Notes: generated by a model not told the origin, from the sequence alone. Numbered from the stretch's first letter, positions 1,431 through 51,069 are shown. The stretch: DNA of 64,000 nt from Nannocystis bainbridge (GCF_028368995.1 NZ_JAQNDL010000002.1:1600001-1664000), one strand, 5' to 3'. Translations and numbers: made by a program.

Positions 1431-1477
1431 GCCCCGCGAGGCTCGCAGGTGCCGCGCACCGGCGCAAGGGCTCGCGC

Positions 1478-2815
1478 TCAGGGCGGGTCGCCGAACATCC
1501 GCACCGACTGGGCCGAGCGGACCACCCGCTGCGGGTCGATGCGATCACGCACCGCCAGGAACTGCGGCAGCCGCGGGTCCATCGCCGCGTAGTGGTCCGG
1601 CCGGGTGAACGCGTCCTTCGACAGGTAGATGCGCCCGCCCTCGGCGATCACCAGCTCGTTGAGCGCGTCGATCAACCTCTGCGTGTCGTCGCGGACCGCG
1701 AAGTCGACCGCGATCGAGATCCCCGGGCGGAGGAAGCTGAGCATCCCCTGCCCCTCCGCCGCCGCGTCCTTGATCACGCACAGGAACGACGCCCCGCCGC
1801 GGCGCGTCAGCAGATCGAGGAAGCGACGGGCCGCGCCGTGACCGGCCTCCTCCGGCAGCACGCACTGGTACTGCGTGAACCCGCGACGGCCGTAGATGCG
1901 GTTCCACTGCAGGATCGCGTCGAGCGGGTAGAAGAAGCTGTCGGGGTGGCACAGCTTCTTCTTCACCCGCGGCACGTGGCGCCAGTACCACATCGTGTTG
2001 AACGCCTGCGTCGTCAGCTTCCAGCGCAGCACCCACTCGGGGAACATGACCGGCAGCGTCAGCCGGCGCGTGACCGGCAGCGATCGCCCGCCCGTCTCCT
2101 CCGGCGTGGCCCAGCGCCCGCGGTCGAGCAGCCCGCGGCCCATGTGCTTGCCGCGCGACAGGCAGTCGATCCACCCGACGGTGAACGGCCACGACTTGCC
2201 CGCCTCCTTGAGGCCGGCGATGAACTGATCGATGTCGTCGACCCGCTCGGACTCGCTCCAGATCCACGGCGACGGGATCGCCTGCGTCTGGCACTCGACC
2301 TCGAGGATGTGTCCCGTGAGGCCCATCCCGCCGACGGTGGCCCAGAACAGCTCGGGGTCGCGCTCCGGTGAACATTCGACCAGGTCGCCCGAAGGCAAGC
2401 GCATGCGCAGCGAGCGGACGTGACGCGATCCGAAGCAGCCGTGGCTGTGATGGCCCTTGCCGTGGACATCGGACGCCACCATGCCGCCGAGAGTCACGAA
2501 CTGCGTGCCCGGCGTCGAGCCGATGAACCACCCGCGGCGCAGGAACAAGCGGTTGAATTCCCACAGCGAGAAGCCCGCCTCCGCGCGCAGCAGCCCCGTC
2601 TGGCCGTCCCAGTGGAGGATGCGATCGGCCAGGCGCGTGCCCACGACCTCGCGGTGCGACGGCGGCGGCAGCGAAGAATCGCCGTAGGAGCGGCCGAGCC
2701 CGCGGCTGAGCACTGCCGCACGCGTCGCGCGCTCGAGATCCTCGCTCAACAATTCGCGCCCGGGCACTGCGAGGTTGCCCCATCCCGCCACTGTCGGCTC
2801 GCCGCGGTCGCTCAC
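1478..2815 (-). CDS. FAD-binding oxidoreductase, DprE1-like (decaprenylphosphoryl-ribose oxidase family)
   Basis: RGLGRSYGD, TPGTQFVTLGGMVASDVHGK, FFYPLD, GFTQYQ and GGRIYLSKD motifs typical of DprE1. Confidence 0.88.
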   Translation of the reverse strand: MSDRGEPTVAGWGNLAVPGRELLSEDLERATRAAVLSRGLGRSYGDSSLPPPSHREVVGTRLADRILHWDGQTGLLRAEAGFSLWEFNRLFLRRGWFIGSTPGTQFVTLGGMVASDVHGKGHHSHGCFGSRHVRSLRMRLPSGDLVECSPERDPELFWATVGGMGLTGHILEVECQTQAIPSPWIWSESERVDDIDQFIAGLKEAGKSWPFTVGWIDCLSRGKHMGRGLLDRGRWATPEETGGRSLPVTRRLTLPVMFPEWVLRWKLTTQAFNTMWYWRHVPRVKKKLCHPDSFFYPLDAILQWNRIYGRRGFTQYQCVLPEEAGHGAARRFLDLLTRRGGASFLCVIKDAAAEGQGMLSFLRPGISIAVDFAVRDDTQRLIDALNELVIAEGGRIYLSKDAFTRPDHYAAMDPRLPQFLAVRDRIDPQRVVRSAQSVRMFGDPP

Positions 2816-2823
2816 GCGTCTGC

Positions 2824-2856
2824 AGTGTAGAGCAGCGTTCGCCCGTCCGCTATGCT
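2824..2856. promoter_or_regulatory. Back-to-back -10-like hexamers for divergent, probably leaderless genes
   Basis: TACACT on - strand (2829-2824), 8 nt before GTG 2815; TATGCT (2851-2856), 6 nt before GTG 2863. Confidence 0.55.
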
Positions 2857-2862
2857 CGCGCC

Positions 2863-3474
2863 GTGCCCGCGGACAGCAGCGCCAAGATCACGATCGTAAG
2901 CGGCTCCAGCCGGCTCGAGAGCCGCGTTCACGCCGTGGTCGGCATCGCCGCCGACACCGCCCGAGCCGCCGGCGCCGAGGTCGAGGTCGTCTCGCTCCAC
3001 GACCTCGGCCTCCCCGTGATGGTCTATGGCGACCGCAGCCAGGACGATCTGCCCGGCGTGCAGACGATCCGCCGCCACGCCGCCTGGGCCGACGGCTTCG
3101 TCATCTGCACGCCCGAGTACCACGGCAACATGTCGGGCTGCCTCAAGAACTGGTTCGACTTCCTCTACGAAGAGCTCGCCGGCAAGTTCGCCGGCGTGCT
3201 CGCCGTCACCGGCGGCGGCGGCGGCGACATGTCGATCACCGCGGTGAAGACCAGCTTCGCCTGGTGTCACGGCTTCACCCTGCCGTACCACGTGGCCGCG
3301 CGATCCGTCGATTTCGACGTCGAGGGCAACCTCTGCAACAACCTCGTCGCCGACCGGATCCGCCGCGTCGCCTACGACGTCGTCCGCTACGCCCCGGTCG
3401 TGCGCGGCACCTTCGAAGCGGCCCGTCGCCTCGGCCCCGGCGTCGAGGCGGGCGTCGCCGGCGCCCACACGTAG
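2863..3474 (+). CDS. NADPH-dependent FMN reductase
   Basis: GSSR N-terminal motif and TPEYHGNMSGCLKNWFD flavodoxin-like signature. Confidence 0.88.
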   Translation: MPADSSAKITIVSGSSRLESRVHAVVGIAADTARAAGAEVEVVSLHDLGLPVMVYGDRSQDDLPGVQTIRRHAAWADGFVICTPEYHGNMSGCLKNWFDFLYEELAGKFAGVLAVTGGGGGDMSITAVKTSFAWCHGFTLPYHVAARSVDFDVEGNLCNNLVADRIRRVAYDVVRYAPVVRGTFEAARRLGPGVEAGVAGAHT

Positions 3475-3609
3475 CCGCGACGCGCCTCGCCTCGCGCCAC
3501 GCCTCGCCGGAGCCTCGCGCGGAGGTCGCCATCGGCCCCGCTCGCGCGTGCTGCAACTCTCGCGGCCGCGATCGTGAGCGCGCGGGCGCGTGATATCGTG
3601 CCCGGCGTC

Positions 3610-4089
3610 ATGACCACGTCCATCGAAGGCGCCCCTGCCGGGCTCGTCGTCGCCGACGAGCAGGCCGCCGCCGTCCACTTTCTCGTCGACGAGGAGCTCT
3701 ACCCGCTCCCCGCGATCTACGGCGCCGCCTACGTCTTCATCGACCGCTGTTATGTCTTTTTGGACAGGCCCGAGCCCGCGCGCGTGCGCGTGGTCCTGAC
3801 CGCCAAGACGGGCGCGGCCGCCCCCGAGGCCCTGCGCGCGCTGATCGGCGAGTTCGCCAACGAGCTGCTCTCGTGCGCCTTCCGCCACCAGATCGCCCAG
3901 GACAACCGCGTCCTCATCGAGACCGCCACCATGCAGGCGCTGGCCGGCGCCATGGGCCAGCCCAGCCTCGACGACCTGGCCAAGTTCGACTTCAGCGACC
4001 AGGGCTTCGACGACCCGCTCGGGATCGCCATGTCGTGGGAAGAGAAGCACGGCCGCAAGGCGCCCAAGACCGGCGAGGGCGCGCCGTGA
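3610..4089 (+). CDS. hxsD: His-Xaa-Ser system protein HxsD
   Basis: YPLPAIYGAAYVFIDRCYV and GEFANELL..FRHQI resemble the HxsD family; upstream of an HxsB-like radical SAM gene; start could be 3574. Confidence 0.72.
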   Translation: MTTSIEGAPAGLVVADEQAAAVHFLVDEELYPLPAIYGAAYVFIDRCYVFLDRPEPARVRVVLTAKTGAAAPEALRALIGEFANELLSCAFRHQIAQDNRVLIETATMQALAGAMGQPSLDDLAKFDFSDQGFDDPLGIAMSWEEKHGRKAPKTGEGAP

Positions 4090-4313
4090 CCGACGTGCAC
4101 GAGCTCCGCTTCTCCCGTCAGCTCTACAGCGGCGAGGCCGTCGACCAGGCCGTCAAGGCGTTCGCCCGCTTCGCCGTCTTCGAGCTCGAGCAGACCGACG
4201 ACGCCTGGGTCGTGCGCATGACCCCGAGCGACCCGAACCTGGCCCGTCGCCTGCGCGGCGAGCTCGGCAACCACGCTCTCGGCCTCACCGTCCAGCGCGG
4301 AGGCGCCAAGTGA
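4086..4313 (+). CDS. Small HxsD-like protein (75 aa)
   Basis: MTDVHELRFSRQLYSGEAVDQAVKAF...GELGNHAL; GTGA overlaps with both neighbours; second copy of the LY...GE(F/L)xN pattern. Confidence 0.7.
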   Translation: MTDVHELRFSRQLYSGEAVDQAVKAFARFAVFELEQTDDAWVVRMTPSDPNLARRLRGELGNHALGLTVQRGGAK

Positions 4314-5818
4314 ACCTGTCCCTTCAGCCAGCCCCCGCGCTCGTGCAGCTGCGCCCGCGCGCCGGCACCCAGGCCTACTTCCGCTGGCGCGCCGTCGGCG
4401 ACCGGGTCCTCGTCACCAACCTCGAGGGCAACTGGCTGCTGCTGAGCCAGCCCGAGTTCGCCGCCTTCCTCGAGGGACATGTCCCCGAGGACAGCGACCT
4501 CCACGCCCGCCTCAAGGCCGGCAACTTCCTGCGCGCCCACTACGACGTGCGCGCCGCCGCCGAGCGGATCCGGGCCCGCAAGAGCTTCCTCGCCGGCGGC
4601 CCCAACCTGCACATCCTCGTCGTCACCCTCCGCTGCAACGAGACCTGCGTCTACTGCCACGCCTCGCGCGCCAACATGGATCAGGTCCACACGGACATGA
4701 CCCGCGAGACCGCCGAGCGCGCGATCGACCTGGTGTTCCGCAGCCCGAGCCCGTTCGTCACCATCGAGTTCCAGGGCGGCGAGCCGCTCGTCAACTTCGA
4801 CGTCGTCAAGCACGCCATCGAGTACGCCGTCGACCAGAACCGCGTCCACGGCAAGCGCCTGCAGTTCACGATGGTCTCGAACTTCGCCCTGCTCGACGAC
4901 GCCAAGCTCGAGTACCTGATCGAGCACCGCGTCCAGCTGTGCACCAGCATCGACGGGCCCGAGAAGCTGCACAACGCCCAGCGCAAGCTGCCGACCCAGG
5001 ACGCCCACCAGCGGGCGATCCGCTGGATCACCCGCATCAACCAGGCTTACGAGGCCGCCGGCCTCGACCCGACCCTCTACCACGTCGAGGCCCTGCTCAC
5101 GACCACGCGCGAGACCCTGCCGCTGTGGAAGGAGGTCGTCGACACCTACGTCGGCCTCGGCTGCAAGGCGCTGTTCCTGCGCGCCATCGACCCGTTCGGC
5201 TTCGCCGACCGCACCCGCAAGCGGCTCGAGTACCCGCGCCACGACTACATGCAGTACTACCGCCGCGCGGTCGACTACATGATCGAGCTCAACAAGCAGG
5301 GCGTGCAGATCCTCGAGCGCTACGCCAGCATCTTCCTGACCAAGATCCTGCGCGGCGAGGACCCCAATTTCCTCGACCTGCGCAGCCCCTCGGGCGCCGG
5401 CATCGGCGCGCTGGCCTACAACTACGACGGCCAGGTGTTCACCTGCGACGAGGGCCGCATGCTGCACGAGATGGGCGACGACACGTTCCACCTCGGCGAC
5501 GTGCGCACCAGCAGCTTCCGCGACCTGGTCGGCCACGAGACGGTGCGGGCGATGACCATCGCCTCCAACCTCGACGGCCAGCCCGACTGCGTCCACTGCA
5601 CCTACCAGCCCTACTGCGGCACCATCCCCAGCTTCAACCACAAGAGCCAGGGCTCGATCTTCGGCCGCATGCGCGAGAGCAACGTCTGCGCGGTCCACAA
5701 GGGCATCCAGGACTACCTGTTCGAGAAGCTGGCCGAGGCCGACCCCGAGACCCTGGCGATCTTCGACCGCTGGACCACCGTCCGCAGCCGCGACCACTTC
5801 GTCCAGCCGGCCCCGTGA
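4310..5818 (+). CDS. hxsB: His-Xaa-Ser system radical SAM maturase HxsB (SPASM-type)
   Basis: CNETCVYC (CxxxCxxC), EFQGGEP, DLRSPSGAGIG, FTCDEGRM and C-terminal CVHCTYQPYCG. Confidence 0.85.
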   Translation: MNLSLQPAPALVQLRPRAGTQAYFRWRAVGDRVLVTNLEGNWLLLSQPEFAAFLEGHVPEDSDLHARLKAGNFLRAHYDVRAAAERIRARKSFLAGGPNLHILVVTLRCNETCVYCHASRANMDQVHTDMTRETAERAIDLVFRSPSPFVTIEFQGGEPLVNFDVVKHAIEYAVDQNRVHGKRLQFTMVSNFALLDDAKLEYLIEHRVQLCTSIDGPEKLHNAQRKLPTQDAHQRAIRWITRINQAYEAAGLDPTLYHVEALLTTTRETLPLWKEVVDTYVGLGCKALFLRAIDPFGFADRTRKRLEYPRHDYMQYYRRAVDYMIELNKQGVQILERYASIFLTKILRGEDPNFLDLRSPSGAGIGALAYNYDGQVFTCDEGRMLHEMGDDTFHLGDVRTSSFRDLVGHETVRAMTIASNLDGQPDCVHCTYQPYCGTIPSFNHKSQGSIFGRMRESNVCAVHKGIQDYLFEKLAEADPETLAIFDRWTTVRSRDHFVQPAP

Positions 5819-5832
5819 CGCCCTGCGCGTTC

Positions 5833-5884
5833 GGACATGTCCCCGGGGGCATGCCCGAATGAACATGGTCGATCGCACATGTCG
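5833..5884. repeat. 14-bp-period palindrome array, 4 units
   Basis: CATG at 5836, 5850, 5864, 5878; convergent junction. Confidence 0.85.
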
Positions 5885-5909
5885 TCTGAGCCAGACGACG
5901 CCTCGACCG

Positions 5910-6245
5910 TCAGCCCTTCTCCGCCAGGTAGCGGAGCCAAAAGTCGACGTCGACGATGTTGTCCTCCGCGGTGATCTGCTCCGCGGTGCGCCGCCCGAGC
6001 CGCACGTTCAGCGCGTAGGCGGCGAGGTCGGCGGCGATGTGCCCGCGTCGCAGGCACTCGAGCAGATCGTCGATGCCGACCTCTTCCTGGCTCGCGTGCA
6101 CGATCGTGTTGGCCGCGGCGATATGGTCCAGCGGCGGCCGCTGGGGGTCGCGGATCGCCCGCAACGCTTCTGCCAGCTCCATCCTGTAGTCGCTGTGTTC
6201 CCGGCGCCTCGCTCGCCGGCGCGCACGGCTGTGACGGTGGCTCAT
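5910..6245 (-). CDS. Hypothetical protein
   Basis: 111-aa ORF directly downstream of the MFS fragment, with protein-like composition. Confidence 0.6.
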   Translation of the reverse strand: MSHRHSRARRRARRREHSDYRMELAEALRAIRDPQRPPLDHIAAANTIVHASQEEVGIDDLLECLRRGHIAADLAAYALNVRLGRRTAEQITAEDNIVDVDFWLRYLAEKG

Positions 6246-6252
6246 GCCGCCC

Positions 6253-7032
6253 TCAGCGCCCGCGCGCCAGCGGCCGCACTGCCAGCGTCAGCGCCAGGCC
6301 GACCAGCAGCGCCGCTGCCATGATCTGCAGCGTCGACGCGTAGAGCTCGACCCGCGCGCCGCCCGGCGGCAGCGCCTGCAGCCGCGCCTCGCGGATCGAC
6401 GTGATGAGGATCGGCCCCGCCACCCCCGCCGCGCTCCAGGCGGTCAGGATCACCCCGTGCACCGCGCCGACGTTGCGGGCCCCGAACATGTCGGCCAAAA
6501 ACGCCGGGATCGTCGCAAACCCGCCGCCGTACATCGTGAAGATCACGACCACTGCCAGCTGGAACAGCTGCCACTGCCCGCTCGCCGCCAGCTGCGGGAT
6601 CGCCAGGAACAGCCCCGCCTGGGCCGCGAAGAAGATCGAGAACACCGCCCGGCGGCCGATCCGGTCCGACAGCGAGGCCCAGAAGATGCGCCCGAACGCG
6701 TTGAAGCCGGCGATCACCGACACCATCGCCGCCGCCTGCTCGGGCGTGCGCTGGAACAGGTCCTGCATCATCGGCGACGCCTGGGCCAGGATCGAGATGC
6801 CGGCGCTGATGTTGATGAACAGCATCCCCCACAGCAGCCAGAACTGGCGCGTGCGGACCGCCATCGGCATCGTCAGCTCCGGCTCGCCGCCGGCCTGGAT
6901 GGCCTTCGGGACATGTCCATCCGGACACCAGCCGTCGGGCGGGCGGGCCAGCGAGCGCGCCGCGATCATCATCACCACGAAGTACACCGCCGCCAGGATC
7001 CACAGCGTCTCGGCCACCCCGACCGCCCGGAT
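6253..7032 (-). pseudogene. C-terminal half of an OFA-family (oxalate/formate antiporter-like) MFS transporter; N-terminal half missing
   Basis: QFWLLWGMLFINISAGI, FNAFGRIFWASLSDRIGRR, MYGGGFATIPAFLADMFG and VHGVILTAWS; begins at about TM6 right after the upstream gene's stop. Confidence 0.7.
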
Positions 7033-8001
7033 TCAGCCGACGACCACCGTCAGCGTCACCGACTCGAGCGTGCCCTTGTCGGCGAACGCCGAGTCGCCGG
7101 CGCAGAAGCGCCAGGTGCCCGCGGACGGCTCGCCGGTGAAGTCGCCGAAGTCTTCGCCGGGCCCGGCGCCGGGGCTCGGCGCGAACTCGCAGACCCCGTC
7201 GTCGCGGCACACCGCCTCGTCGATGCCGAGCGAGTGGCCCATCAGCTCGGCGTCGGTCCCGTCGTTGTGGAACGTCACCGGCCACACCGGATCGATGTCC
7301 GAATTATTGATGCTGTCGGACATCCCGTCGTCGGCCTCCTCGGCGCCGCCCGGCAGGCTCATCAGCGTCAGCACCGTGCCCTCCGGGCTCCACAGCTTGA
7401 ACACCAGGTCGCCGACGTGCGGGTGGTCGGCCCCGATCTTCATGCGCACGTCGTGCACCACCCCCTCCTTGGCGATCGCCAGGTCGACGCACACCATCGA
7501 GCTCTGGTTGCCGTCGTAGAGGTCACTCGGGATCATCAGGCCCAGGTTCTCCAGCACCACCTCGGTGTCCTCGCCCTGGCTCTCGAATTTACAGCTCGGA
7601 TCGCAGCCGTCGCCGGGGATCAGGTTGCCGTCGTCGCACTGCTCGACGTCGTCGCGCACCAGCCCGTCGCCGCAGGCCGCCAGCTCGCACCCGGCCGTGC
7701 AGGCGGCGTCGTCGGCGTTGGCGGCCCCGAGGTCGCACTCCTCTTCGCCCTCGACGATGCCGTTGCCACACATGTCCGAGGGGCCAGGTCCGCTCGAGCT
7801 CGTCGTCGCCTCGCTCGTGGTCGGGATCGCGGGGTCGGTCGTCGTCGTCGGCTCCGTCTCCGCGCCGCTGGTCGTGCTCGTGCTCGTGCTCGCCGAGGTC
7901 ACGCCGCTCGCCGACATGCCGACCGACAGCCCGGTGTCGGCCTGGTCGTCGCCGCAAGCCGAGACCAACAACAGGAACGCGACGATGCTCCGCACGTGCA
8001 T
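7033..8001 (-). CDS. Lipoprotein with Myxococcus Cys-rich (DUF4215-like) repeats and a proprotein-convertase P-domain-like region
   Basis: Lipobox VSAC, Ser/Thr linker, CGNGIVEGEEECD / CDDGNLIPGDGC repeats, HPHVGDLVFKLWSPEGT...GTWRF. Confidence 0.8.
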   Translation of the reverse strand: MHVRSIVAFLLLVSACGDDQADTGLSVGMSASGVTSASTSTSTTSGAETEPTTTTDPAIPTTSEATTSSSGPGPSDMCGNGIVEGEEECDLGAANADDAACTAGCELAACGDGLVRDDVEQCDDGNLIPGDGCDPSCKFESQGEDTEVVLENLGLMIPSDLYDGNQSSMVCVDLAIAKEGVVHDVRMKIGADHPHVGDLVFKLWSPEGTVLTLMSLPGGAEEADDGMSDSINNSDIDPVWPVTFHNDGTDAELMGHSLGIDEAVCRDDGVCEFAPSPGAGPGEDFGDFTGEPSAGTWRFCAGDSAFADKGTLESVTLTVVVG

Positions 8002-8163
8002 GCCGCGGCGTATGGCACAGCCCCGCGCGCGTGCCAAGCGTGGCTGCCCTCGCTCGTGACGAGCCTTACGCCTGGCGACGCCGATGTCGGGCATCAACCT
8101 CTCGCGCCCATCGCCACGACGTCACCCTGATACCGGACGTGCAGGTCCGCCGGGCTCCAGGTG

Positions 8164-10398
8164 TCAGCGCCGCGGCGTGATGCGCCAGCACTTGTGGATC
8201 TTCGGGCTGCGCGCGAAGTCCTTGGGGATCGTCGTCGCCGACAGGTCCTCGATGTCGAGGTCGGCGAGGGCCTCCTGGTCGAGGCGGAAGCGCCGGTAGT
8301 TGGTCGAGAAGATCAGCACCCCGTCGCGCTCGAGCAGGCGCACCGCGGACCGGATCAGCTCGACGTGGTCGCGCTGCACGTCGAGCACGCCCTCCATCCT
8401 CTTCGAGTTGGAGAACGTCGGCGGGTCGAGGAAGATGGCGCCGTAGCGGCGCAGCTCGCGGGCCATGAACTCGCGGCACTCGGCCTCGACGACCCGGTGC
8501 TGCGGCCCGCGCAGCCCGTTGAGCTCGAGGTTGCGGCGGGCCCACGCGCAGTACGTGGTCGAGAGGTCGACCGTGGTCGTCGACAGCGCCCCGGCCTTGC
8601 CGGCGTAGACCGAGGCCGTACCGGTGTACGCGAACAGGTTGAGGAACCGCTTGCCGCGGGCCACCTGGCCGACCAGCGCGCGGGTGTCGCGATGGTCGAG
8701 GAACAGCCCGGTGTCGAGGTAATCGGTGAGGTTGACGAGGAAGCGCCCTGGCCCCTCGCGCACCTCGATCAGGTCGCCGGCGTCGTCGCGGCGGCCGTAC
8801 TGCCCGCCGCCCTTGGCCCGCTCGCGGCGCTTGCAGACCACCTGCGCCGCCGGCAGCTCGAGCGCGTCGGGGATCACGCGCAGCGCCTCGCGCAGGCGCG
8901 CCGCGGCCCGCACCGGATCGATCTCGGACGGCGCCGCGTACTCCTGGACCAGCGCCCAGTCGCGGTAGAGGTCGACCGCGACCGCGTACTCGGGGATGTC
9001 GGAGTCGTAGACCCGGAAGGCCTCGATCCCGTGGCGCGCGGCCCAGCTGCCGAGCTGCTTGCGGTTCTTCCGCAGCCGATTGAACAGCGCCTCGCCGCCC
9101 TCGCTGCGGGTGTACGTGCGCGGCGGCGGGGCCTCGCGCGGGATCTCGAAGCGCAGCAGGTTGACCGCGATCGCCCCGTTGTAGAGCACGTGGCGCCGCT
9201 CGGCCCGCAGCCCGATCGCGTGGCCGAGCTCGAGGTCGGGCGCCAGGATCGCCGCCTTCCAGCCGCCGAAGTGGTCGCGCAGGCGCGCGCCGAGCAGCTC
9301 GTAGAGCGCCGGCATGTCGGCCCGGACCCCGAGCCGCTCGCCGTACGGCGGGTTGGTGGCGACGAGGCCCGTGATCTTCGGGACATGTCCCGAAGGACCT
9401 GTCTCGGCAGACTTGACCTCACGAACATGTCCCGAAGGACCTGTCTCCGGGGCCACCAGCTCGGCGAGCTCGCGCCGCTCGACGCGGATCCGGCCGCCGA
9501 GGCCCGCGCGCGCCGCGTTGGCGATCGCCGCCTTGACCGCCGCCGGATCGCCGTCGTAGCCGAAGATCGGCGGCACCTTGTCGATCCCGATCGCCGCCCG
9601 CGCGCGCGCCTCGGTCAGCAATTCGTCCCACAGCGCCTTCTGGTGGCCACGCCAGCCGAGGAAGCCGAAGTACTCGCGGCCGAGCCCCGGCGCGCGGTCG
9701 CAGGCCATGTGGGCCGCCTCGATCAGCAGCGTGCCCGAGCCGCACATCGGATCGACCAGCAGCGCGCCCGCGGCCGCCAGCGCCGGCCAGCCCGCGCGCA
9801 TCAGCAGGCCCGCCGCCAGGTTCTCTTTGATCGGCGCCTCGGCCCCTTCTTCGCGGTAGCCGCGACGGTGTAGGCCCTCGCCGGCGAGGTCGATCGAGAT
9901 CACGGCCTCGTCGTGGGATGTCTCCTGGAACATGCCCTTGATGCCATGTCCCGCCGGCTTGCGCAGGTGCACGCTGACGCGCACGTCGGGCCGCTGCACC
10001 GCGACGTCGGGGCGCACGCCGCTGCCGGCATTGAACTGATCGACGATCGCGTCCTTGACCCGCTGCGCGCCGAAGCGGGTGTGCACGATCGCCGCGTTGG
10101 CGCCGGTGAAGTCGACCGCCATCGTCCCGCGCGCCGACATGTGCTGGCGCCAGTCGACCCGCTGCACCGTGGTGTAGAGCTCGTCGGCGTCGCGCGCCGG
10201 CCCCGTCGAGACCTCGAGCAGCACGCGCCCGGCCAGCCGCGACCACAGGCACGCGCGGTAGCCGATGACCAGCGGCCCGCGGAAATACACGCCCGCCGGT
10301 TGGAGCCGGATCGCCGTCGCACCGAGCGCGCGGAGCTCGTCGGCGAGCAGCTCGAGGAGGCCTTGCGGAGCGCTGGCGAAGAAGTTGTGCTCGTTCAC
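8164..10398 (-). CDS. rlmKL: Bifunctional 23S rRNA m2G2445/m7G2069 methyltransferase RlmKL
   Basis: CLWSRLAGRVL, LHRRGYR, DPMCGSGT, NPPYGERL, YLDTGLFLDHR, LNLFAYTG and DPPTFSNSKRM. Confidence 0.95.
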   Translation of the reverse strand: MNEHNFFASAPQGLLELLADELRALGATAIRLQPAGVYFRGPLVIGYRACLWSRLAGRVLLEVSTGPARDADELYTTVQRVDWRQHMSARGTMAVDFTGANAAIVHTRFGAQRVKDAIVDQFNAGSGVRPDVAVQRPDVRVSVHLRKPAGHGIKGMFQETSHDEAVISIDLAGEGLHRRGYREEGAEAPIKENLAAGLLMRAGWPALAAAGALLVDPMCGSGTLLIEAAHMACDRAPGLGREYFGFLGWRGHQKALWDELLTEARARAAIGIDKVPPIFGYDGDPAAVKAAIANAARAGLGGRIRVERRELAELVAPETGPSGHVREVKSAETGPSGHVPKITGLVATNPPYGERLGVRADMPALYELLGARLRDHFGGWKAAILAPDLELGHAIGLRAERRHVLYNGAIAVNLLRFEIPREAPPPRTYTRSEGGEALFNRLRKNRKQLGSWAARHGIEAFRVYDSDIPEYAVAVDLYRDWALVQEYAAPSEIDPVRAAARLREALRVIPDALELPAAQVVCKRRERAKGGGQYGRRDDAGDLIEVREGPGRFLVNLTDYLDTGLFLDHRDTRALVGQVARGKRFLNLFAYTGTASVYAGKAGALSTTTVDLSTTYCAWARRNLELNGLRGPQHRVVEAECREFMARELRRYGAIFLDPPTFSNSKRMEGVLDVQRDHVELIRSAVRLLERDGVLIFSTNYRRFRLDQEALADLDIEDLSATTIPKDFARSPKIHKCWRITPRR
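9381..9447. repeat. 14-bp-period array inside rlmKL, including a 42-bp-offset duplication
   Basis: Cores at 9384, 9398, 9412, 9426, 9440; ACATGTCCCGAAGGACCTGTCTC at 9383 and 9425; peptide ETGPSGHV occurs twice. Confidence 0.85.
9914..9951. repeat. 14-bp-period array inside the rlmKL THUMP region
   Basis: GATG 9917, CATG 9931, CATG 9945; encodes PAGHGIKGMFQETS. Confidence 0.7.
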
Positions 10399-10529
10399 GT
10401 GGCGCCCGGGCTATAGCGACTTTCGCGCGCGCACGCGAGTCTGCCCGCGCGTGCGTCGACTTGCACCGCGCGTGCGAGCTGACCCCGCGGACATCTGCTG
10501 CGGTGCGCCGTCTGCGACGTGGGCCACGC

Positions 10530-12374
10530 TCACACCCGTCTGCGACGGCGGCGGGCGCCCGCGAGCGCCAGCAGGCCCAACAGACCTGGCGCCAGCCGAT
10601 CTTCCGATCCGCCGAGCGAGCAGGCGCCGTGCTGGCCGTAGCCTGGTGGCAAGGCGCCGCCGCCGGCCGAGCTCGGGCCCTCGCCGCCGGTCGACGACGA
10701 CGCGTCGCCGCCGCTGCCGGGGATCCCGTCGGTGGTCGGCACCTCGCCGCCGCTCTCGTCCCCGCCCGTGCCCGTGCTGCCCTCGCTGTCCCCGCCGGTC
10801 CCGCCCTCGGGCGGGCACAGCGGATCGGCGGGATCGCCCTCGGGCGCGCATTGCGGGTCGTCGAGCATGTACACCGCCGAACCTGTCCCCTGGACCAGGA
10901 ACGGCTCCGGCCGCACATCTGTCCCTTGGGGCATGGCCATGAGGTCAGCCAGAGCGATCGCCTGCGCCGTCGCCGGGTCGAACTGCCAGGCCGCCGCGAC
11001 CTCGGCGCTGGCGATGAGGCGGCGGAACCCGGCGTCGACCAGCCACAGCGTCGGGTCGCCGGCGACCTGGACCAGCGCCGGCGCGCCCGCGATCGCCTGC
11101 CACTCGGGGATCGCGTTCAACGTCGGATCGTCGACCTTCGCCATCTGCCAGAACGTCGACAGCGACCACGCCTGCAGCGCCGCCGGGTCGGGCACGTGGC
11201 GGCGCACGCCCGGCGGCAGCGGCGGCGGCGGGCAGGCGAACTGGCGCGGGCTGCCGTCGAGCTGCGCCGGTCCGTCGCCGCCGAGATCGACCCCGTAGAC
11301 GTAGACCGGGTGCGATGCGCCGTCGAGCAGGCTGCGCGGCAGCGGCGACGAGAACCCGTGCGCGCACGAGCCGATCGCCATGCACAGATCGTCGCGGTGC
11401 TGGTCGGCCGTCAGCGTCACCTCGACCGCGTTGGCGTCGCCGTGCGCCGCCAGGAAGCTGACGATCGCGTCGACCGGCGCGTCCTTCTGATCCGGATCCC
11501 AGGCCCAGCCCTGGATCCCCGCCGCGCAGTCGGCCGCGTCGAACGAGCCCGCGGCCGGCTGGTTCGGCGGCACCACGCACCCTCCTTGCGCCTGCAAGAT
11601 CTCGATGTCGGCGCCGAAGTAGAAGCGGACGATGTCGACGACTTTGTAGCCCTTCGTGTTCTCGAGGCAGCGCGCGCCCCACTGCGACATGCAGCCGCGG
11701 TTCTGCCCGTAACCATTGGTCCCGAGGTTCTCCGGGAACACGAACCCGAGCGACGTCTGGTCGACGTCGTAGACCGTCTTGCCCTCGTTGAAGGTCACGT
11801 ACTGCTCGGTGCCGGACACCGTCGGATTGTCGGTGTCGATGCAGCTCGCCGGCTGCTTGTTGTCGCCGGCGACGTAAAAGGCGTAGGTCAGCCAGCCGTT
11901 GTAGGACAGGTACTGCCCGGCCGTCGCCGCCACCGCGTCGTAGTGGACCTGCTGCGGCTCGGCCCCGCACGTGTACACCTGGCAGCCCTGGCCGTCGCAG
12001 ATCTGGCCGTCGTTGAACATCGCGTAGTAGGCCACCGAGCGGGCCGCGATCGCCTGGGCCTTGAGCGCCTCGAGGTTGGCCCCGCCGTTCTCGCAGGTGA
12101 TCACGTGCGGCAGGTAATCGGTCTCCATCGCCCGCGACACCCCCTCGACGACGATGTCGCAGTAGGCCCCGCCGAGCGGGACCGGCACCGCCGTCAGCGG
12201 CTCGGGCAGCGGCATCGCCCAGTCCTGCGGCGAAGTCATGCCGCGCGGGGCGCCTGACCTATCGGACAGGTCCGAAAGACCATCCGCGAGCTCGACGCGC
12301 TCGACCTCCGCGTCCGCCCGGGCGGGGTCACAGGCCGAGAGCGACAGCAGCACGAAGAGGGCGGCGCGGGGCAT
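10530..12374 (-). CDS. Secreted SpoIID/LytB-domain protein with MYXO-CTERM-like tail
   Basis: YLPHVITCE..LEALKAQAIAARS (SpoIID-like), CMSQWGA, acidic Gly/Ser linker, C-terminal GACSL...LLGLLALAGARRRRRR; start 12374 gives lipobox LSAC. Confidence 0.78.
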   Translation of the reverse strand: MPRAALFVLLSLSACDPARADAEVERVELADGLSDLSDRSGAPRGMTSPQDWAMPLPEPLTAVPVPLGGAYCDIVVEGVSRAMETDYLPHVITCENGGANLEALKAQAIAARSVAYYAMFNDGQICDGQGCQVYTCGAEPQQVHYDAVAATAGQYLSYNGWLTYAFYVAGDNKQPASCIDTDNPTVSGTEQYVTFNEGKTVYDVDQTSLGFVFPENLGTNGYGQNRGCMSQWGARCLENTKGYKVVDIVRFYFGADIEILQAQGGCVVPPNQPAAGSFDAADCAAGIQGWAWDPDQKDAPVDAIVSFLAAHGDANAVEVTLTADQHRDDLCMAIGSCAHGFSSPLPRSLLDGASHPVYVYGVDLGGDGPAQLDGSPRQFACPPPPLPPGVRRHVPDPAALQAWSLSTFWQMAKVDDPTLNAIPEWQAIAGAPALVQVAGDPTLWLVDAGFRRLIASAEVAAAWQFDPATAQAIALADLMAMPQGTDVRPEPFLVQGTGSAVYMLDDPQCAPEGDPADPLCPPEGGTGGDSEGSTGTGGDESGGEVPTTDGIPGSGGDASSSTGGEGPSSAGGGALPPGYGQHGACSLGGSEDRLAPGLLGLLALAGARRRRRRV

Positions 12375-12671
12375 GAGAGACACCTCCAACTTTCGCATGA
12401 TGCCCCGGGCAGTTTCGCGCCACAAGAGAACTCGAGGTGCCGTCGAGGCCCCATCGCGTGCGCGCATCGGTCCACCCGCGGACCTCGCACCTCGCCGACG
12501 CGCCGGCCCCAGCCGGCCCCGCGCGCGACCGCGGCCGCACGAGACGCGGAGCCTGACGCCGGCCGCAGCGAGGACGTGGAGCATCACCCGACCTGCAGTT
12601 CACGCGTCCGCAGTCCAGGCGCGATGACGGGAATGCTCCGCCTGCGCTACGGTTTCCTGGTCGCTGACGTG

Positions 12672-15600
12672 ATGGTTGCGAACCGACGCGTGACATCGCC
12701 TTGGACCTGGCTCGCGCGCGCGCTGGGCCTCGGCGTGTTCGCGCTCGCCTGCGAGCCCGCCGATCCGTGCCAGCGCACCGGCGCCGGCGCGCTGTGCCTC
12801 GACCTCGCCAATGCACGGACCTACGGCTGGGGCCTTTCCACAGCCAGCCTCGCTGTCGCCGACCTCGACGCCGACGGCGTGCCCGACATCGTCGGCGCCG
12901 GTGACGCTCGCGGCACGGTGGGCGCGATGTGGGGCCGTCCCGGCGCACATGGCGTTCAGGACATGTTCGATGGGACATGGACATCCTGGTGGGTCGGCGC
13001 GCCCACGCGCGACCTCGTCGTCGCCGATCTCGACGGCGACGGCCGGCTCGACGTCGCCACCGCCCTGCCCGAGAGCGGTGAGATCGCGGTCCTGCGCGGC
13101 CGCGGCGGGCGCGAACTCGGCGAGCCGCAGCGGATCGCCGTCGACGCGGGCCCGCGCCGGCTCGTCGCCGCCGACCTCGACGGCGCGGGGCCGCCCGAGC
13201 TCGTGGTCGTCAACGAGACCGCCGGCACGCTGACGATCGTGCGCGACCTCGTCGCCGATCCGCCGCTCGCCGTCGGCCCCGGCGCGCGCGACCTGGCGGT
13301 CGCCGACCTCGACGGCGACGGTCACCGCGACGTCGCGGTCGCCGTCACCGAGGCCGGCGCGATCCAGGTTCTGCTCGGCGACGGGCACGGCGGTCTCGTG
13401 ACCGGCCCTCGGCACGCCGTCGGCCTCGCGCCCACGGACATCGTCGCCGCCGATCTCGACGGCGACGGCGCGATCGATCTCGCCACCCTCGACGTGCTCG
13501 CCGACGACGTCACGATCCTCCACGGCGACGGCCGGGCTCGCCTGCGCGCGCGCACCCGCTGGCCCGTCGATCTCGATCCGGTCGACCTCGCGGTCTCGCC
13601 CGACTCTACCGGCCAGCCTGTCCTTTACGTCCTGTCCGAAGTGACAGGCAACGTCCAGCGCGTCGACCCGCGCCGCGGCGTGGTCCTGACCGCCAGCCCG
13701 CGCACCTCCCCGAGCCAGCTGCTCGTCGGCGATCTCGACGGCGACGGCCGCGACGCCCTCCTTTATGCTCGCGGCGGCGACGGCCTCGGCGAGCTGGCGC
13801 CCGAGCGCGGCCTGCGACTCGAAGCGCTGTGGCAGCGCGAGCGCACCGGCACCGCCTTCCCGGTCGACCTCGAGGCTGACGGCGTCGACGAGCTGCTCAT
13901 CGATCTCGACGATCAGCCCGAGCCCGATCCGGCGACCGAGCCGTCGCGGGTCGTGGCGCTGGTCCGCGGACCCGAACCCCTCGACCTCGAGCTCGAGACC
14001 GGCCTCGCGGACGCGCTGCAGGGCGCCGTCGCGGCCGACTTCGACGGCGACGGACGCAACGACCTCGTGCTGTGGACGCGCAGCCATACGGCTGTCCTCC
14101 TGCGCCGCCCCGACGGCAGCTTCGCCCCCGGCGTGTCTGCCCCCTACTTCGGCGAGCCGGAGGAGCACGCCGTGGTGCGCGGCGGCGACCGGGCCCGGCT
14201 CGTGTTCGCCGGCCCGGGCGGCCTCTCTTTCCTGCACCTCGGCCCCGAGGGCGCGCTCGTCGTCGAAGCCGAGGTCTCGCTGCAAGGCCGCTTCAGAGGC
14301 CTCTCCACCATCGATCTCGCCGGCGACGGTCGCACCGACCTCGTGGTCCACGTGGCGGAGTCGCTGGTGTTGGTCGAGGGCCTCGATCCCGACGCGACGC
14401 GGGTGATCGAGCTGCCCGCGCTCGCCGACAGCCGCGCGCTCGTCCTCGTGCCTGGCGACCACGCGGGGCCCGACGCGCTGGTCTGCACCTCGGACGGCCT
14501 CGTCCACGCGCCCGACCTGTTCGGTCCTTCGCCTGGCGATACGACCCTGCTCGACCCCGATCGCTGCCAGCAGCTCGGCCTCTTCGATCTCGACGGCGAC
14601 GGCCGACGCACCGAGGTCGTCAGCCTGCGCTCGTCGGCCCTGCTGGGCGACCTCGTGCGCGTCCACATGACGCCGTGGCAGCGCGACGACGGGGCCTGGC
14701 GCTCGCTCGCCCCGCGGACCGTCGTCCATGTCCAGGGCTCGCCGCGGCTGATCGCGCAGGACGGCGGTCGGATGGCCCTGCTGCGCAATACGACCGCGAG
14801 CGACATGGTCGCGGAGGACATGTCCTTCGGGCCAGCTCTCCTCGCCCGCCCGCGCGCACAGCTCGACGTCTTCAGCGACGCGACGCTCGGTGATTTCGAC
14901 GGCGACGGCGCCCTCGACGTGTTCGTCCGCGTCGGTCGCCCCGGCAATACCGGCCGCCTCGGCTTCGCGTTCGGCGACGGCGACGGCGGCTTCGGCCCGA
15001 CCGAGCTGCGCGGCGGCCCGGGGCGCGACGACCTGTTCTCTTATCGAGCCCGCGCTGTCCAGCTCGACGACGACGCCGGCGACGAGATCGTCCTGCTGGT
15101 CCATTCGCAGGATCAGACGCGCTCGCTGCTGGTCCGCCTCGATCTCGAGGGCGGCGAGCTGCGACGGCGTGACCTCCTGCAGATCCCCTCGTTCTGGCCT
15201 GCGGAGCTGCTGGTCGGCGATCTCGACGGCGACGGTCGGCGCGACCTCCTCGTCCTCGCTACCGTACCGGGTGGCGGGCCGGCCACCGGCGGCGGGCTGC
15301 TCCCACGCGCCGCCTTCCTGCGCAACCTGGACGGGGGGCTCGCCCCTGCTCGCTGGCAGGACCTCGACGGCATCGTCGGCTTCAACTCGCAGCTCGCCGA
15401 TCTCGACGGCGACGGACGCCTCGACCTGTACTCGAACGGCCTCGGCATGCAGGTCGCGTTCGGCCGCGGCGACGGTCGTTTCGGGCCCATGCGGACGTGG
15501 AGTCCGCTCGCGCCCGACGAAATCGCCGTCGCCGATATCGACCGCGACGGCCGCCCCGACGTGCTCGCCGTCGTCTTCGACTACGACACCCCGCCCCCGC

Positions 15601-15905
15601 ACAACCTGCAGGTCCTGCACCTGCGCGGCGGCGCCACGGCCGGCCCACCGCGGGCCATTTTCTCCGGCGGTCTCAGCGTCGACGTCGCCGACCTCGACGG
15701 CGACGGCGAGCTCGAAGTGCTCGTCGTCGACCTCGAAGGCGCCCTCCAGGTCGGCCATCACCGCGACGGCACGTTCCGCTTCGAACGCCACCCGCTGCCC
15801 GGCGCTCTCGGCTACGTCCGCGTGCGTGACCTCGACGGCGACGGTCTGCCCGACATCACGCTCCTCAGCTCCGCCGCGATCACCACCGTGAGACAATTGC
15901 CGTGA
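12672..15905 (+). CDS. FG-GAP/VCBS repeat lipoprotein
   Basis: More than 15 (A/G)DLDGDGxxD repeats; lipobox ALAC; start uncertain (12576-12690). Confidence 0.85.
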   Translation: MVANRRVTSPWTWLARALGLGVFALACEPADPCQRTGAGALCLDLANARTYGWGLSTASLAVADLDADGVPDIVGAGDARGTVGAMWGRPGAHGVQDMFDGTWTSWWVGAPTRDLVVADLDGDGRLDVATALPESGEIAVLRGRGGRELGEPQRIAVDAGPRRLVAADLDGAGPPELVVVNETAGTLTIVRDLVADPPLAVGPGARDLAVADLDGDGHRDVAVAVTEAGAIQVLLGDGHGGLVTGPRHAVGLAPTDIVAADLDGDGAIDLATLDVLADDVTILHGDGRARLRARTRWPVDLDPVDLAVSPDSTGQPVLYVLSEVTGNVQRVDPRRGVVLTASPRTSPSQLLVGDLDGDGRDALLYARGGDGLGELAPERGLRLEALWQRERTGTAFPVDLEADGVDELLIDLDDQPEPDPATEPSRVVALVRGPEPLDLELETGLADALQGAVAADFDGDGRNDLVLWTRSHTAVLLRRPDGSFAPGVSAPYFGEPEEHAVVRGGDRARLVFAGPGGLSFLHLGPEGALVVEAEVSLQGRFRGLSTIDLAGDGRTDLVVHVAESLVLVEGLDPDATRVIELPALADSRALVLVPGDHAGPDALVCTSDGLVHAPDLFGPSPGDTTLLDPDRCQQLGLFDLDGDGRRTEVVSLRSSALLGDLVRVHMTPWQRDDGAWRSLAPRTVVHVQGSPRLIAQDGGRMALLRNTTASDMVAEDMSFGPALLARPRAQLDVFSDATLGDFDGDGALDVFVRVGRPGNTGRLGFAFGDGDGGFGPTELRGGPGRDDLFSYRARAVQLDDDAGDEIVLLVHSQDQTRSLLVRLDLEGGELRRRDLLQIPSFWPAELLVGDLDGDGRRDLLVLATVPGGGPATGGGLLPRAAFLRNLDGGLAPARWQDLDGIVGFNSQLADLDGDGRLDLYSNGLGMQVAFGRGDGRFGPMRTWSPLAPDEIAVADIDRDGRPDVLAVVFDYDTPPPHNLQVLHLRGGATAGPPRAIFSGGLSVDVADLDGDGELEVLVVDLEGALQVGHHRDGTFRFERHPLPGALGYVRVRDLDGDGLPDITLLSSAAITTVRQLP
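12945..12982. repeat. 14-bp-period array inside the FG-GAP gene
   Basis: CATG at 12948, 12962, 12976. Confidence 0.7.
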
Positions 15906-16987
15906 CCGCCCGCCTCCTGACCCTCCTCCTCGTGTTGCTCGCCTGCGACCGCCTGCCCGAGCCGCACCTCGAGGGTCAGCACATCCGCCTCGGCGCCAGC
16001 CCAGGCCACGAGCCGTGCGCCGGCAACCTCGCCCACATGGATCGTTTCATCAGCCTCCTGGCCGCCGAGCTGGGCGTGACGCCGCCGACCGGCGACGACC
16101 GCTTCACCTTTTACTGGCTCGACCAGGACGACTTCCTCGACCTCTCGCCCTGCCCGCGCGAGGTCACCGCCTGCGCCGTCTTCGGCACCGTCTACTCGCG
16201 CGCCGCGATGCTCGACCACGAGTTGGTCCACCTGCTCGACTACGGCACCGCGACCTTCTTCGGCGAGGGCTTCGCCGTCGCCTACGAGGGCCTCGGCGCC
16301 GACGTCATGGGCGGACTGCCGCCCCGCGTCGGCCGCCGCGACATCTGGGGCTCGCTGCTCTCGGTCCTGTGGTTCGGCGTCGATTACGACGACGCTGGCG
16401 CCTTCGTCGCCTACCTCCTCGATCGCCACGGCCTCGCCAAATTCCAGGCCGCGCTGCCCCGGTTCCCGATGCTCGCCTCGCGCGCCGGCATCGATCGCGT
16501 GTTCCGCGAGCAGTTCGGCGTCTCGCTCGAGGACAGCGTCGCCGACTTCATGGACGGGCGCGAGGCTTGCCCGCACATCGCCTACGATCGCAAGCTGATG
16601 GAGTGCGACGTCCCGCGGATCGCCTGGGACGGCCGGCACCACGCCGAGTATCGCCGCCTCGCCGCCGACGAGCCCGACGCCGTCGGCCCGTTCGGCGCCT
16701 CCGACCTCATGGTGCTGCGCGGCATCGACATCCCGGAGGACGGCACCTACGACCTCGACATCATCGCCGACCTGCGCGCCGACTCCCGGCCGCCGTACAC
16801 CCGGCCGACGCTCACTCTTGTCGGCTGCGGCGGCTGCGACGACGAGCCGGTCTTTCACGCGATCACGGGTCGGCAACGCGTCGAGCTGCGCGCCGGCCGT
16901 CACGCCCTGCGCCTGCACAGCTCCACCGCCGCCGACATCCGCGTCGCCTGGTCGATCACCCGCGTCGACGACACGAAGCCGCGCTGA
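15902..16987 (+). CDS. Lipoprotein with HExxH motif (possible gluzincin-like metallopeptidase)
   Basis: Lipobox LLAC; DHELVH followed by FFGEGFA; GTGA overlap with the upstream gene. Confidence 0.7.
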   Translation: MTARLLTLLLVLLACDRLPEPHLEGQHIRLGASPGHEPCAGNLAHMDRFISLLAAELGVTPPTGDDRFTFYWLDQDDFLDLSPCPREVTACAVFGTVYSRAAMLDHELVHLLDYGTATFFGEGFAVAYEGLGADVMGGLPPRVGRRDIWGSLLSVLWFGVDYDDAGAFVAYLLDRHGLAKFQAALPRFPMLASRAGIDRVFREQFGVSLEDSVADFMDGREACPHIAYDRKLMECDVPRIAWDGRHHAEYRRLAADEPDAVGPFGASDLMVLRGIDIPEDGTYDLDIIADLRADSRPPYTRPTLTLVGCGGCDDEPVFHAITGRQRVELRAGRHALRLHSSTAADIRVAWSITRVDDTKPR

Positions 16988-17029: not shown

Positions 17030-17103
17030 GAGCATGTCCCGAGGGACAGTACGAAATGTCTATCGAGACATGTCTATCGGAGCATGTCCGAATGGCCATG
17101 CGA
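17030..17103. repeat. 14-bp-period palindrome array
   Basis: Cores at 17033/17047, then 17055, 17069, 17083, 17097; convergent junction. Confidence 0.8.
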
Positions 17104-20331: not shown

Positions 20332-20423
20332 CCCTGTCCTTCGGGGCATGCCCCTTCGAACCTGTCCCTGGCGACCTGTCCGAACGAACCTGTCCTTGAT
20401 CACCTGCCCTTGAGGACCTGTCC
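20330..20423. repeat. 14-bp-period array, 7 units, filling the intergenic gap
   Basis: C(A/C)TG cores at 20333, 20347, 20361, 20375, 20389, 20403, 20417. Confidence 0.9.
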
Positions 20424-21322: not shown

Positions 21323-21350
21323 CCGCGAACATCGTCTACATTCCCGGGCC

Positions 21351-23159
<1,809 letters not shown>

Positions 23160-23162
23160 GCC

Positions 23163-24869
<1,707 letters not shown>

Positions 24870-24872
24870 GCG

Positions 24873-25059
24873 GTAGGTGTCCGTTCGGACATGCCCTTGG
24901 CGGCATGTCCGAAGCGCCCTGTCGCTTCGGACATGCGCCTTCGAGCATGTCCCTCGATACACCTCACCGGCGCGCCTCGGCATGTCCTTCGACATATGCG
25001 CTGCCGCCCCGCACGCTGTCTTCGCCGCAGTGATCGCGCATGTCCTTCGAGACATGCGC
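24873..25059. repeat. 14-bp-period palindrome arrays
   Basis: Cores at 24876, 24890, 24904, 24918, 24932, 24946; 24981/24995; 25039/25053; convergent junction. Confidence 0.88.
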
Positions 25060-28138: not shown

Positions 28139-28163
28139 GGGACATGTCCGTTTCGCCATGAAC
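28126..28163. repeat. 14-bp-period array overlapping a stop codon
   Basis: CATG at 28129, 28143, 28157. Confidence 0.8.
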
Positions 28164-29149: not shown

Positions 29150-29229
29150 TCTCATGTCGGTAAGGACATGTCCCACGGAGCATGTCCTCGAGCACAGGCT
29201 CCAAAGAACATGTCCTTCCGTACAGCGCC
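29150..29229. repeat. 14-bp-period palindrome array, 6 units
   Basis: Cores at 29153, 29167, 29181, 29195, 29209, 29223; convergent junction. Confidence 0.88.
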
Positions 29230-30433: not shown

Positions 30434-30532
30434 GTCGTTCGGATGGTAGACCAGCCCTCCTGCGGGACAAGGGCCGGCGGGCCGCGGGGCGCGTTGAAGC
30501 CCGGGGCAGTTTCCGGGATCCTGGTCGTCGCG

Positions 30533-35492: not shown

Positions 35493-35558
35493 CCAAAAGT
35501 CCGAAGGGACATGTCCGAGTAGACATGTCCCTTCGGACCTTGCGCAACGGTCATGCGG
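35493..35558. repeat. 14-bp-period palindrome array
   Basis: Cores at 35496, 35510, 35524, 35538, 35552; convergent junction. Confidence 0.8.
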
Positions 35559-44035: not shown

Positions 44036-44181
44036 AGCATGTCCGTGCGGACATGCCCTCGCGGACGTGTCGCTTCGGACATGTTCACAAGGCCGCCCGC
44101 GCGTCCAGGCCGACCGAGCCTGCGCCGCAGAGCATGTCCGTGAGGACATGCCCTCGCAGACATGTCGCTTCAGACATGACC
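44021..44181. repeat. Two near-identical 4-unit 14-bp-period arrays, 95 bp apart
   Basis: Cores at 44038, 44052, 44066, 44080 and 44133, 44147, 44161, 44175; both preceded by GAGCCTGCGCCG(T/C)AG. Confidence 0.88.
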
Positions 44182-48797: not shown

Positions 48798-48916
48798 GGC
48801 CATGGCCCCCGCGCCATGCTCTTCGGGGCATGTCGCAAGCGACAGGCGCGAACAGCCATGTCCGAAACGACATGTCCCTCGCGCCAGCCACCGCAGCTGA
48901 CCGCAGCGACATGTCC
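48798..48916. repeat. 14-bp-period palindrome array
   Basis: Cores at 48801, 48815, 48829, 48843, 48857, 48871; CGACATGTCCCTCGCGCCAGCC repeated at about 48868 and 48907. Confidence 0.85.
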
Positions 48917-51017: not shown

Positions 51018-51069
51018 GGACATGCCCCCTCGGACATGTCTTTCAAAGCATGCCCCTTAGAACATGTTC
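51018..51069. repeat. 14-bp-period palindrome array, 4 units
   Basis: CATG at 51021, 51035, 51049, 51063. Confidence 0.88.

Follow-up and report, generated by a model that had tools for sequence, protein, structure and literature searches.

Palindromic arrays within rlmKL of Nannocystis bainbridge

The 64,000-nucleotide (nt) stretch of Nannocystis bainbridge DNA analyzed here (NZ_JAQNDL010000002.1, 1600001-1664000; henceforth the window, with positions counted from its first letter) carries on its minus strand an rlmKL gene (8164-10398) whose reading frame contains arrays of a short palindromic repeat. The coding sequence, supported by open reading frame (ORF), Pfam, and Protein Data Bank (PDB) 3V97 matches, begins at a GTG and specifies 744 amino acids (aa); its Pfam domains and its match to Escherichia coli RlmL identify the product as the bifunctional 23S rRNA m2G2445/m7G2069 methyltransferase. 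The domains follow in the order PF22020 (RlmL_1st), PF02926 (THUMP), PF01170 (UPF0020), and PF10672 (Methyltrans_SAM), that is, a ferredoxin-like N-terminal domain, THUMP, an N-terminal methyltransferase with the NPPY motif, and a C-terminal S-adenosylmethionine (SAM) methyltransferase. E. coli RlmL (PDB 3V97) is matched over its full length (E value of 1.5e-182; residues 5 to 741 versus 4 to 701), and it is also the best Foldseek match of the structure model (E value of 6e-79). The catalytic NPPY (9343-9354, minus strand; aa 349-352) is intact, 7 residues past the end of the array-encoded peptide, and the longer stretches NPPYGERL and DPMCGSGT are both unbroken. The window has a G+C content of 73%, which rises to 88 to 99% at the third codon positions of its genes. 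An antisense ORF on the plus strand at 9314-9559, which reads the repeat as GTCPEGPVS, was rejected as a gene because the codon-position GC pattern matches the minus strand.

The repeat unit consists of a 10-bp palindromic core, GGACATGTCC, and a free 4-nt spacer, which together give arrays a strict 14-bp period; the spacers are diverse, and a fixed tetraloop such as UUCG was rejected as their identity. Exact cores number 13 in the window, and those with at most one and at most two mismatches number 50 and 133, against first-order Markov expectations of 0.1, 2.1, and 29; pairs of cores at exactly 14 nt number 31, against 0 expected. Comparable enrichment is found in 22-kb loci of five related Nannocystis species, and the family is real and genus-wide. 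Taking as an array at least two consecutive cores with three mismatches or fewer to GGACATGTCC and an exact 14-nt spacing, we found 25 arrays of two to five units in the window, with 68 units in all and a near-invariant CATG center. Ten of the 25 are intragenic, and many others lie just downstream of genes or between convergent genes. All six genomes have an array, one to five units long, directly past the stop codon of the gene that ends at 16987. Several intergenic arrays fold with stems of 10 to 17 bp, and five of seven fold as long hairpins (z scores of -3.2 to -7.7). An Rfam scan of the whole window gave no match to curated RNA models at the gathering score. A literature search, whose coverage excluded subscription journals, found no description of the repeat family and, among the papers listed, none linking REPINs, the hairpin-forming relatives of repetitive extragenic palindromic (REP) sequences, with myxobacteria; on intergenic hairpin repeats, the one Nannocystis paper listed was a review of retrons.

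The first array within rlmKL, site 1 (9381-9446; like the insertion and the palindrome described below, it has no assigned strand), contains five cores at 9381, 9395, 9409, 9423, and 9437 with 0, 2, 3, 1, and 2 mismatches to GGACATGTCC, all in 14-nt phase, and encodes ETGPSGHVREVKSAETGPSGHV (aa 318-339). Tandem Repeats Finder independently delimits it as 9381-9445, with a period of 14, 4.6 copies, and 60% matches. Within it lie two exact copies of a 23-nt block, ACATGTCCCGAAGGACCTGTCTC, one at 9383 and the other at 9425, 42 nt apart, a coincidence for which 100 shuffles gave an expectation of 0 matches. On the gene strand the region reads ETGPSGHV REVKSA ETGPSGHV PKITGLVATNPPYG. The duplicated block, the two copies of ETGPSGHV shortly before NPPY, and the in-frame position of array units within rlmKL had been pointed out in a sequence-only reading of this DNA, and all three stand, with the five cores read through in an intact 744-aa ORF. 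The middle unit is weak; because cores with three mismatches or fewer occupy just 0.58% of window positions, it is unlikely to stand in phase by chance.

A second array, site 2, corresponds to the 15-aa loop PAGHGIKGMFQETSH (9913-9957, minus strand; aa 148-162), flanked by VHLRK and DEAVISID. Its two cores, at 9928 and 9942, are degenerate and in phase with each other at 14 nt. In an AlphaFold2 model computed from 29 sequences (mean predicted local distance difference test [pLDDT] score of 83), residues 150-160 (site 2) and 322-340 (site 1) have pLDDT values below 50, two among five such segments in RlmKL, so that mapping onto structure, as the earlier reading had envisaged, puts both sites in loops. 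In the model, site 2 occupies a THUMP-domain turn between strands 139-146 and 164-170, and site 1 the link from strand 304-308 to strand 344-348, the latter ending in NPPY. Both stretches are missing from distant orthologues, E. coli RlmL among them. In the usual class I methyltransferase topology, the start of β-4 faces the side of the sheet opposite the cofactor site. The two arrays are thus predicted to sit in loops, with site 1 modeled as disordered.

A private 42-nt gain at site 1

Orthologous loci were taken from five Nannocystis reference genomes, those of N. punicea, N. exedens, Nannocystis sp. RBIL2, N. pusilla, and N. radixulma (collectively L001 to L005), which share 88 to 92% protein identity with the window and are syntenic with it across positions 1477-16987. 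In all five, RlmKL has 730 aa and two cores at site 1, against 744 aa and five cores in the window; their single ancestral-type block, GAGACAGGTCCTTCGGGACA(T/G)G, encodes (E/G)TGPSG(H/Q). The difference is a private insertion of 42 nt (14 aa), placed by MAFFT at 9375-9416 (columns 7772-7814 of the six-genome alignment, presence pattern 100000); this placement could shift by a few nt in either direction, and one could equally well name the second 23-nt block as the new copy. The tail following the first block recalls the ancestral R-E-A codons and that following the second the ancestral T-G-L-V codons, and because of these resemblances MAFFT treats the middle as inserted. Across the 15.5 kb of this alignment, it is the sole in-gene indel that carries cores. 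Among 10 full-length close relatives in the protein collection, the insertion is absent from 8 and present in the window protein and in P0127, a 744-aa protein that differs from it by 1 residue. Because P0127 was assembled independently, the insertion is not an assembly error; it is genuine and young. The growth of site 1 by 42 nt that had been read from the sequence alone is therefore borne out by the six-genome and gene alignments as a change from two units to five in this lineage only.

A rival account dispenses with the repeat family: 14 codons would have been duplicated in tandem, in the ordinary way, in a loop that tolerates it, the agreement of 42 with 3 × 14 would be a coincidence, and the tails would have diverged since. 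The direct 23-nt repeat at a 42-nt period speaks for it, the tails weakly resemble the ancestral tail (7, 10, and 8 of 19 positions), and the same loop expands in other lineages too: by 16 aa in the homologue P0009 and, independently, by 45 aa in the 74%-identical P0007, where APETGPGGQATDG is repeated 25 aa apart. The duplication in the window is nevertheless imperfect, with 23 of 42 nt identical and the remaining 19-nt tails matching at 8 positions and differing at 11. Such divergence sits poorly with an insertion younger than a species split at which rlmKL third positions differ by only 12 to 16%, the more so as no differences fall inside the 23-nt block, and on this comparison a plain recent duplication is an unlikely source. 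A coincidental duplication would likewise leave to chance the strict 14-nt phase of all five cores, the new middle one included, given the scarcity of such cores in the window. We therefore regard this account as unlikely.

The insertion is accompanied by a perfect 20-nt palindrome, CTTCGGGACATGTCCCGAAG (9376-9395), which is found only together with it. In the mRNA, the right half of the palindrome pairs with the upstream block, so that the two blocks form a stem of about 15 bp, and the site 1 RNA folds at -52.8 kcal/mol (z score of -3.2), against z scores of -1.7 and -1.5 for the same region of L001 and L003. Past the second block, what was ancestrally ...GTCGGAGAGG now reads ...GTCCCGAAGA, which with the left arm produces the perfect palindrome. 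This change resembles quasipalindrome correction, or hairpin-templated mutation; the likeness comes from one site and would account for 8 of the 19 novel nt but for only part of the 42-nt gain. When sequences that could have donated the 19 novel nt (9406-9424) or the 23-mer were sought in the window and the five loci (about 175 kb), only the site itself and its orthologous positions were returned, a negative that is weakly informative given that its scope was not the whole genome of the strain.

Reading frame, loop length, and constraint on the DNA

Because 14 mod 3 is 2, successive units of an array change reading frame. The five units of site 1 are read in frames 1, 0, 2, 1, and 0, giving E-T-G-P, S-G-H-V, and E-V-K-S before the cycle restarts, and the frame 1 units carry the core variant ACAGGT, which yields T-G in place of T-C. 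T-C is absent elsewhere in the window as well: 16 in-gene cores with at most one mismatch in Pfam-supported genes comprise 7 read as G-H-V, 9 as D-M-S, and none as T-C, an absence expected by chance with a probability of (2/3)^16, about 0.0015. Fifteen rows were left out of this count: eight in ORFs that lack Pfam support (47211-47385, plus 48868 and 48907, each counted in two overlapping ORFs), together with 50186, 50228, and 34923 (no Pfam match; read as G-H-V), and four at a stop or likely start (12264 in its plus-strand ORF, 20414, 21347, and 23159). Examples of the two frames are 4475, 6909, and 34923 (G-H-V-P) and 12264, 14816, and 61780 (D-M/L-S).

The codons of the site 1 block are unusual for this gene. 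A- or T-ending codons make up 38 of the 744 in rlmKL (5%), and 13 of those 38 fall within the 22 codons of site 1 (P = 6.5e-13). Five of the seven block codons of the window end in A or T, as do four or five of seven in every one of the five relatives. With the insertion removed, 4 of 5 A/T-ending block codons keep one and the same third position in all six genomes, compared with 4 of 27 in the rest of the gene (Fisher P = 0.009), and two of the four invariant A/T-ending codons outside the block belong to site 2. Beyond rlmKL, the in-gene cores at 4475, 4693, 6909, 12264, 12959, and 14816 remain fixed while their flanks diverge, with 57 of 60 columns invariant, a result equaled by 56 of 20,000 random sets once the two site 1 cores had been dropped post hoc; for all eight in-gene cores, with the private insertion scored as unconserved, conservation was not significant (996 of 5,000 random sets as good). 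Because rare A/T-ending codons show invariant third positions across six genomes, the site 1 block points to a constraint on DNA or RNA rather than on the peptide.

The same observations bear on the converse proposal, that the ETGPSGHV peptide is itself selected, for instance because it serves RlmKL as a flexible or binding loop, and that its DNA likeness to the repeat family is secondary. In its favor, APETGP is retained down to about 70% identity (P0007, P0008, and P0010); yet selection on a peptide does not account for invariance at synonymous sites or for the presence of the same DNA words in noncoding arrays and unrelated genes, and the loop is modeled as disordered. We consider this proposal very improbable.

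Site 2 offers a contrasting picture. Its two cores, with two mismatches each, form a two-core array; the sequence-only reading had correctly placed additional peptide between VHLRK and DEAVISID but had counted three units, the third of which is not counted here because it has four mismatches, one of them at the C shared by 68 of 68 array units. The same reading held that the peptide is extra relative to homologues, which is true against E. coli RlmL and the five most distant homologues (P0035, P0038, P0074, P0093, and P0099), whereas 23 of the 28 homologues aligned share the loop, the least similar of them at about 59% identity. Relative to homologues that lack it, the loop is 15 aa long and not 14, and its RNA fold is unremarkable (z score of -0.36). 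On these alignments, site 2 is an old, fixed 15-aa loop with a worn two-unit trace and no evidence of recent growth.

A second gene, which encodes a Ser/Thr kinase-WD40 protein (30263-34243), contains five in-frame arrays, one of them a four-unit array in the linker between its two β-propellers (33289-33340), read as SRDMPDRSGPKGHVEKDMS; the others lie at 32286-32309, 32570-32607, 33035-33058, and 33586-33609. Length change among its orthologues is nearly all in this linker, the rest being short end differences and a few small internal indels, and the linker measures 37 aa in the window and 77, 88, 105, 64, and 13 aa in five orthologues. Tripeptides of the G-H-V or D-M type recur in the linkers of three of four named Nannocystis orthologues (P0132, P0135, and P0136); that of P0137 has only a weaker S-M-A match, and the 63%-identical P0150 has none. 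On these comparisons, arrays do coincide with length-variable loops and linkers. Of the two checks proposed earlier, the coincidence of orthologous indels with arrays holds for the site 1 indel, but enrichment for 14-aa multiples does not hold: a single one of three private expansions of the site 1 loop (14 aa in the window, 45 aa in P0007, and 16 aa in P0009) is such a multiple, and none of the five linkers differs by one. A 14-aa-multiple rule across orthologues was accordingly rejected, and growth of arrays in surface loops by three-unit steps, as first proposed, finds its one instance in the 42 nt of rlmKL.

These lengths and frames can also be viewed from the side of substitution. In-gene motifs might arise in place by point mutation, with the core favored throughout the genome by drive or selection in the manner of DNA uptake sequences, and come to rest in loops that are free of constraint; low constraint would then underlie both the length of a loop and the presence of a motif in it, neither causing the other. 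At most in-gene cores the length does not change from species to species, their frames are limited to G-H-V and D-M-S, and both site 2 and the ancestral site 1 block are of fixed length across six genomes, all of which suits such a process. It leaves unexplained the 42-nt gain itself, as well as the strict 14-nt phasing and the tandem arrays, and to our knowledge no such phasing occurs in uptake sequences. Findlay and Redfield describe uptake sequences as shaping proteomes (PMC2817400), which speaks for such a process; as a whole, it seems to us improbable.

Origin of the gain and relationship to known repeats

The reading that we favor, with a probability of roughly 0.6 for the explanation as a whole, is that an array of hairpin-forming repeats in a permissive loop gained three units, or 42 bp, in this lineage. 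The ancestor of the genus would already have had two units in the loop ahead of β-4 and NPPY, and three more would have been added in the lineage of this strain, a three-unit gain being the only one to restore the frame. The likely routes are slippage or template switching promoted by hairpins inside the array, or copying from another array; out-of-frame gains would then be removed by selection. The gain would have been tolerated because it fell in a disordered surface loop, on the face of the sheet that points away from the active site, and its outcome would be a longer disordered loop together with a stronger hairpin in the mRNA or the DNA. The repeat itself is most likely a REP-like RNA or DNA hairpin or a binding site for a dimeric protein. 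Its arrays are placed mostly just past genes, and single cores and short arrays are also carried in frame within genes, in loops and linkers.

Several observations weigh against this explanation. Simple slippage is mechanically awkward, because a three-unit slip that starts from a two-unit array requires homology 42 nt apart. No donor is found in the approximately 175 kb searched, 19 of the 42 nt have no obvious derivation, and the middle unit, with its three mismatches, is a poor copy. A single growth event supports the three-unit step, while the expansions of P0007 and P0009 and the kinase-WD40 linker differences (+40, +51, +68, +27, and -24 aa) are not multiples of 14 aa. At site 2, moreover, the length is constant across the six Nannocystis genomes, and the first core is replaced in L002 to L004.

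A broader proposal is that the 10-bp palindrome is a functional genome-wide signal, whether a dimeric-protein site or an RNA/DNA hairpin, kept by selection even within reading frames and so imposing loop peptides; we put it forward as a speculative extension with the odds against it. If it were true, Nannocystis loops would be forced to carry G-H-V, D-M-S, and T-G-P peptides, in-gene arrays would lengthen only by whole three-unit frame cycles (14 aa), and protein loops would grow under the drive of a DNA signal, while a slip of one unit could turn a gene like rlmKL off or back on.

Elsewhere in the window, intergenic arrays of the same 14-nt-period family lie at 86-143, 5833-5884, 17030-17089, 20344-20423, 24887-25046, 28126-28149, 29164-29215, 35507-35530, 44035-44181, 51018-51069, 55173-55284, and 59485-59550. 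The stretch 44035-44181, between sigma-factor and response-regulator genes, comprises two near-identical arrays of four units each, 44035-44086 and 44130-44181, which lie 95 nt apart and represent a whole array duplicated along with its flank. Cores at 21347-21356, 23159-23168, and 28126-28138 overlap gene ends. An FG-GAP gene stops at 28138, within an array (...RSDMS stop), and in the cores at 21347-21356 and 23159-23168 the inner ATG is apparently the start codon of an aspartyl-tRNA synthetase gene and of lnt. Many cores with an irregular spacing of 39 to 69 nt occur at 47211-47394, 48798-48916, and 50186-50251, upstream of or in an N-terminal extension of a PAS histidine kinase ORF, a putatively coding stretch with no Pfam support. 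At the junctions 5818-5910 and 7033-7039, L001 to L005 carry 0.5 to 1.7 kb more than the window, and gene content there varies between species.

Among known systems, the Rickettsia palindromic elements (RPEs) had been invoked as a comparison, which is a fair analogy but not a case of membership, given the 14-bp unit, the 42-bp insertion, and the myxococcotal host. According to PMC10969869, RPEs occur as single elements, about 150 bp long, and fall into ten families, each with a conserved ORF of its own; both they and the Nannocystis repeat are palindromic genomic repeats found in frame in unrelated housekeeping genes, where they add peptide compatible with the fold (PMC10969869). The Nannocystis repeat differs in its 14-bp unit with a free spacer, its phased tandem arrays running through all three frames, and its growth by 42 nt; no terminal repeats or target duplications were seen for it, and it is not a discrete element of about 100 to 150 bp encoding a conserved peptide, as that account has RPEs to be (PMC10969869).

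There is a likeness also to REP sequences, their bacterial interspersed mosaic element (BIME) clusters, and REPINs with their REP-associated tyrosine transposases (RAYTs), which are short imperfect palindromes that form hairpins, are concentrated in the intergenic space downstream of genes, and pass by vertical inheritance at copy numbers that differ between species. The Nannocystis arrays likewise are hairpin-forming palindromes situated after genes, five of seven intergenic ones folding with z scores of -3.2 or lower and the stop-adjacent array recurring in six genomes. They differ in a period of exactly 14 bp and in the intragenic location of 10 of the 25, REPs being extragenic by name; in addition, a Pfam scan of 41 window ORFs gave no match to a transposase family. 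REPs are 20 to 40 nt long and are not known to have a fixed tandem period. Uptake sequences (uptake signal sequences [USS] and DNA uptake sequences [DUS]) are not known to be palindromic or to be organized in phased tandem arrays, and we know of no competence in Nannocystis. They resemble the Nannocystis cores in being words of about 10 nt that occur about once per kb both in and between genes, are conserved between species, and keep to tolerated frames and less constrained parts of proteins (PMC2817400).

The rlmKL locus provides a clean natural case in which a noncoding repeat family writes new peptide into a conserved enzyme, and both ends of the change can be seen, two units in five species beforehand and five units in this strain afterward. 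With a unit of 14 nt, the gene can survive only growth in 42-nt steps. That its rare codons are fixed at synonymous sites suggests that something besides the protein reads this DNA. Identifying that reader would explain why the repeat fills many intergenic regions of the 11- to 13-Mb Nannocystis genomes and also why it recurs in the loops and linkers of many Nannocystis proteins. For annotation, low-complexity Nannocystis linkers rich in G-H-V or D-M-S should be read as repeat derived.

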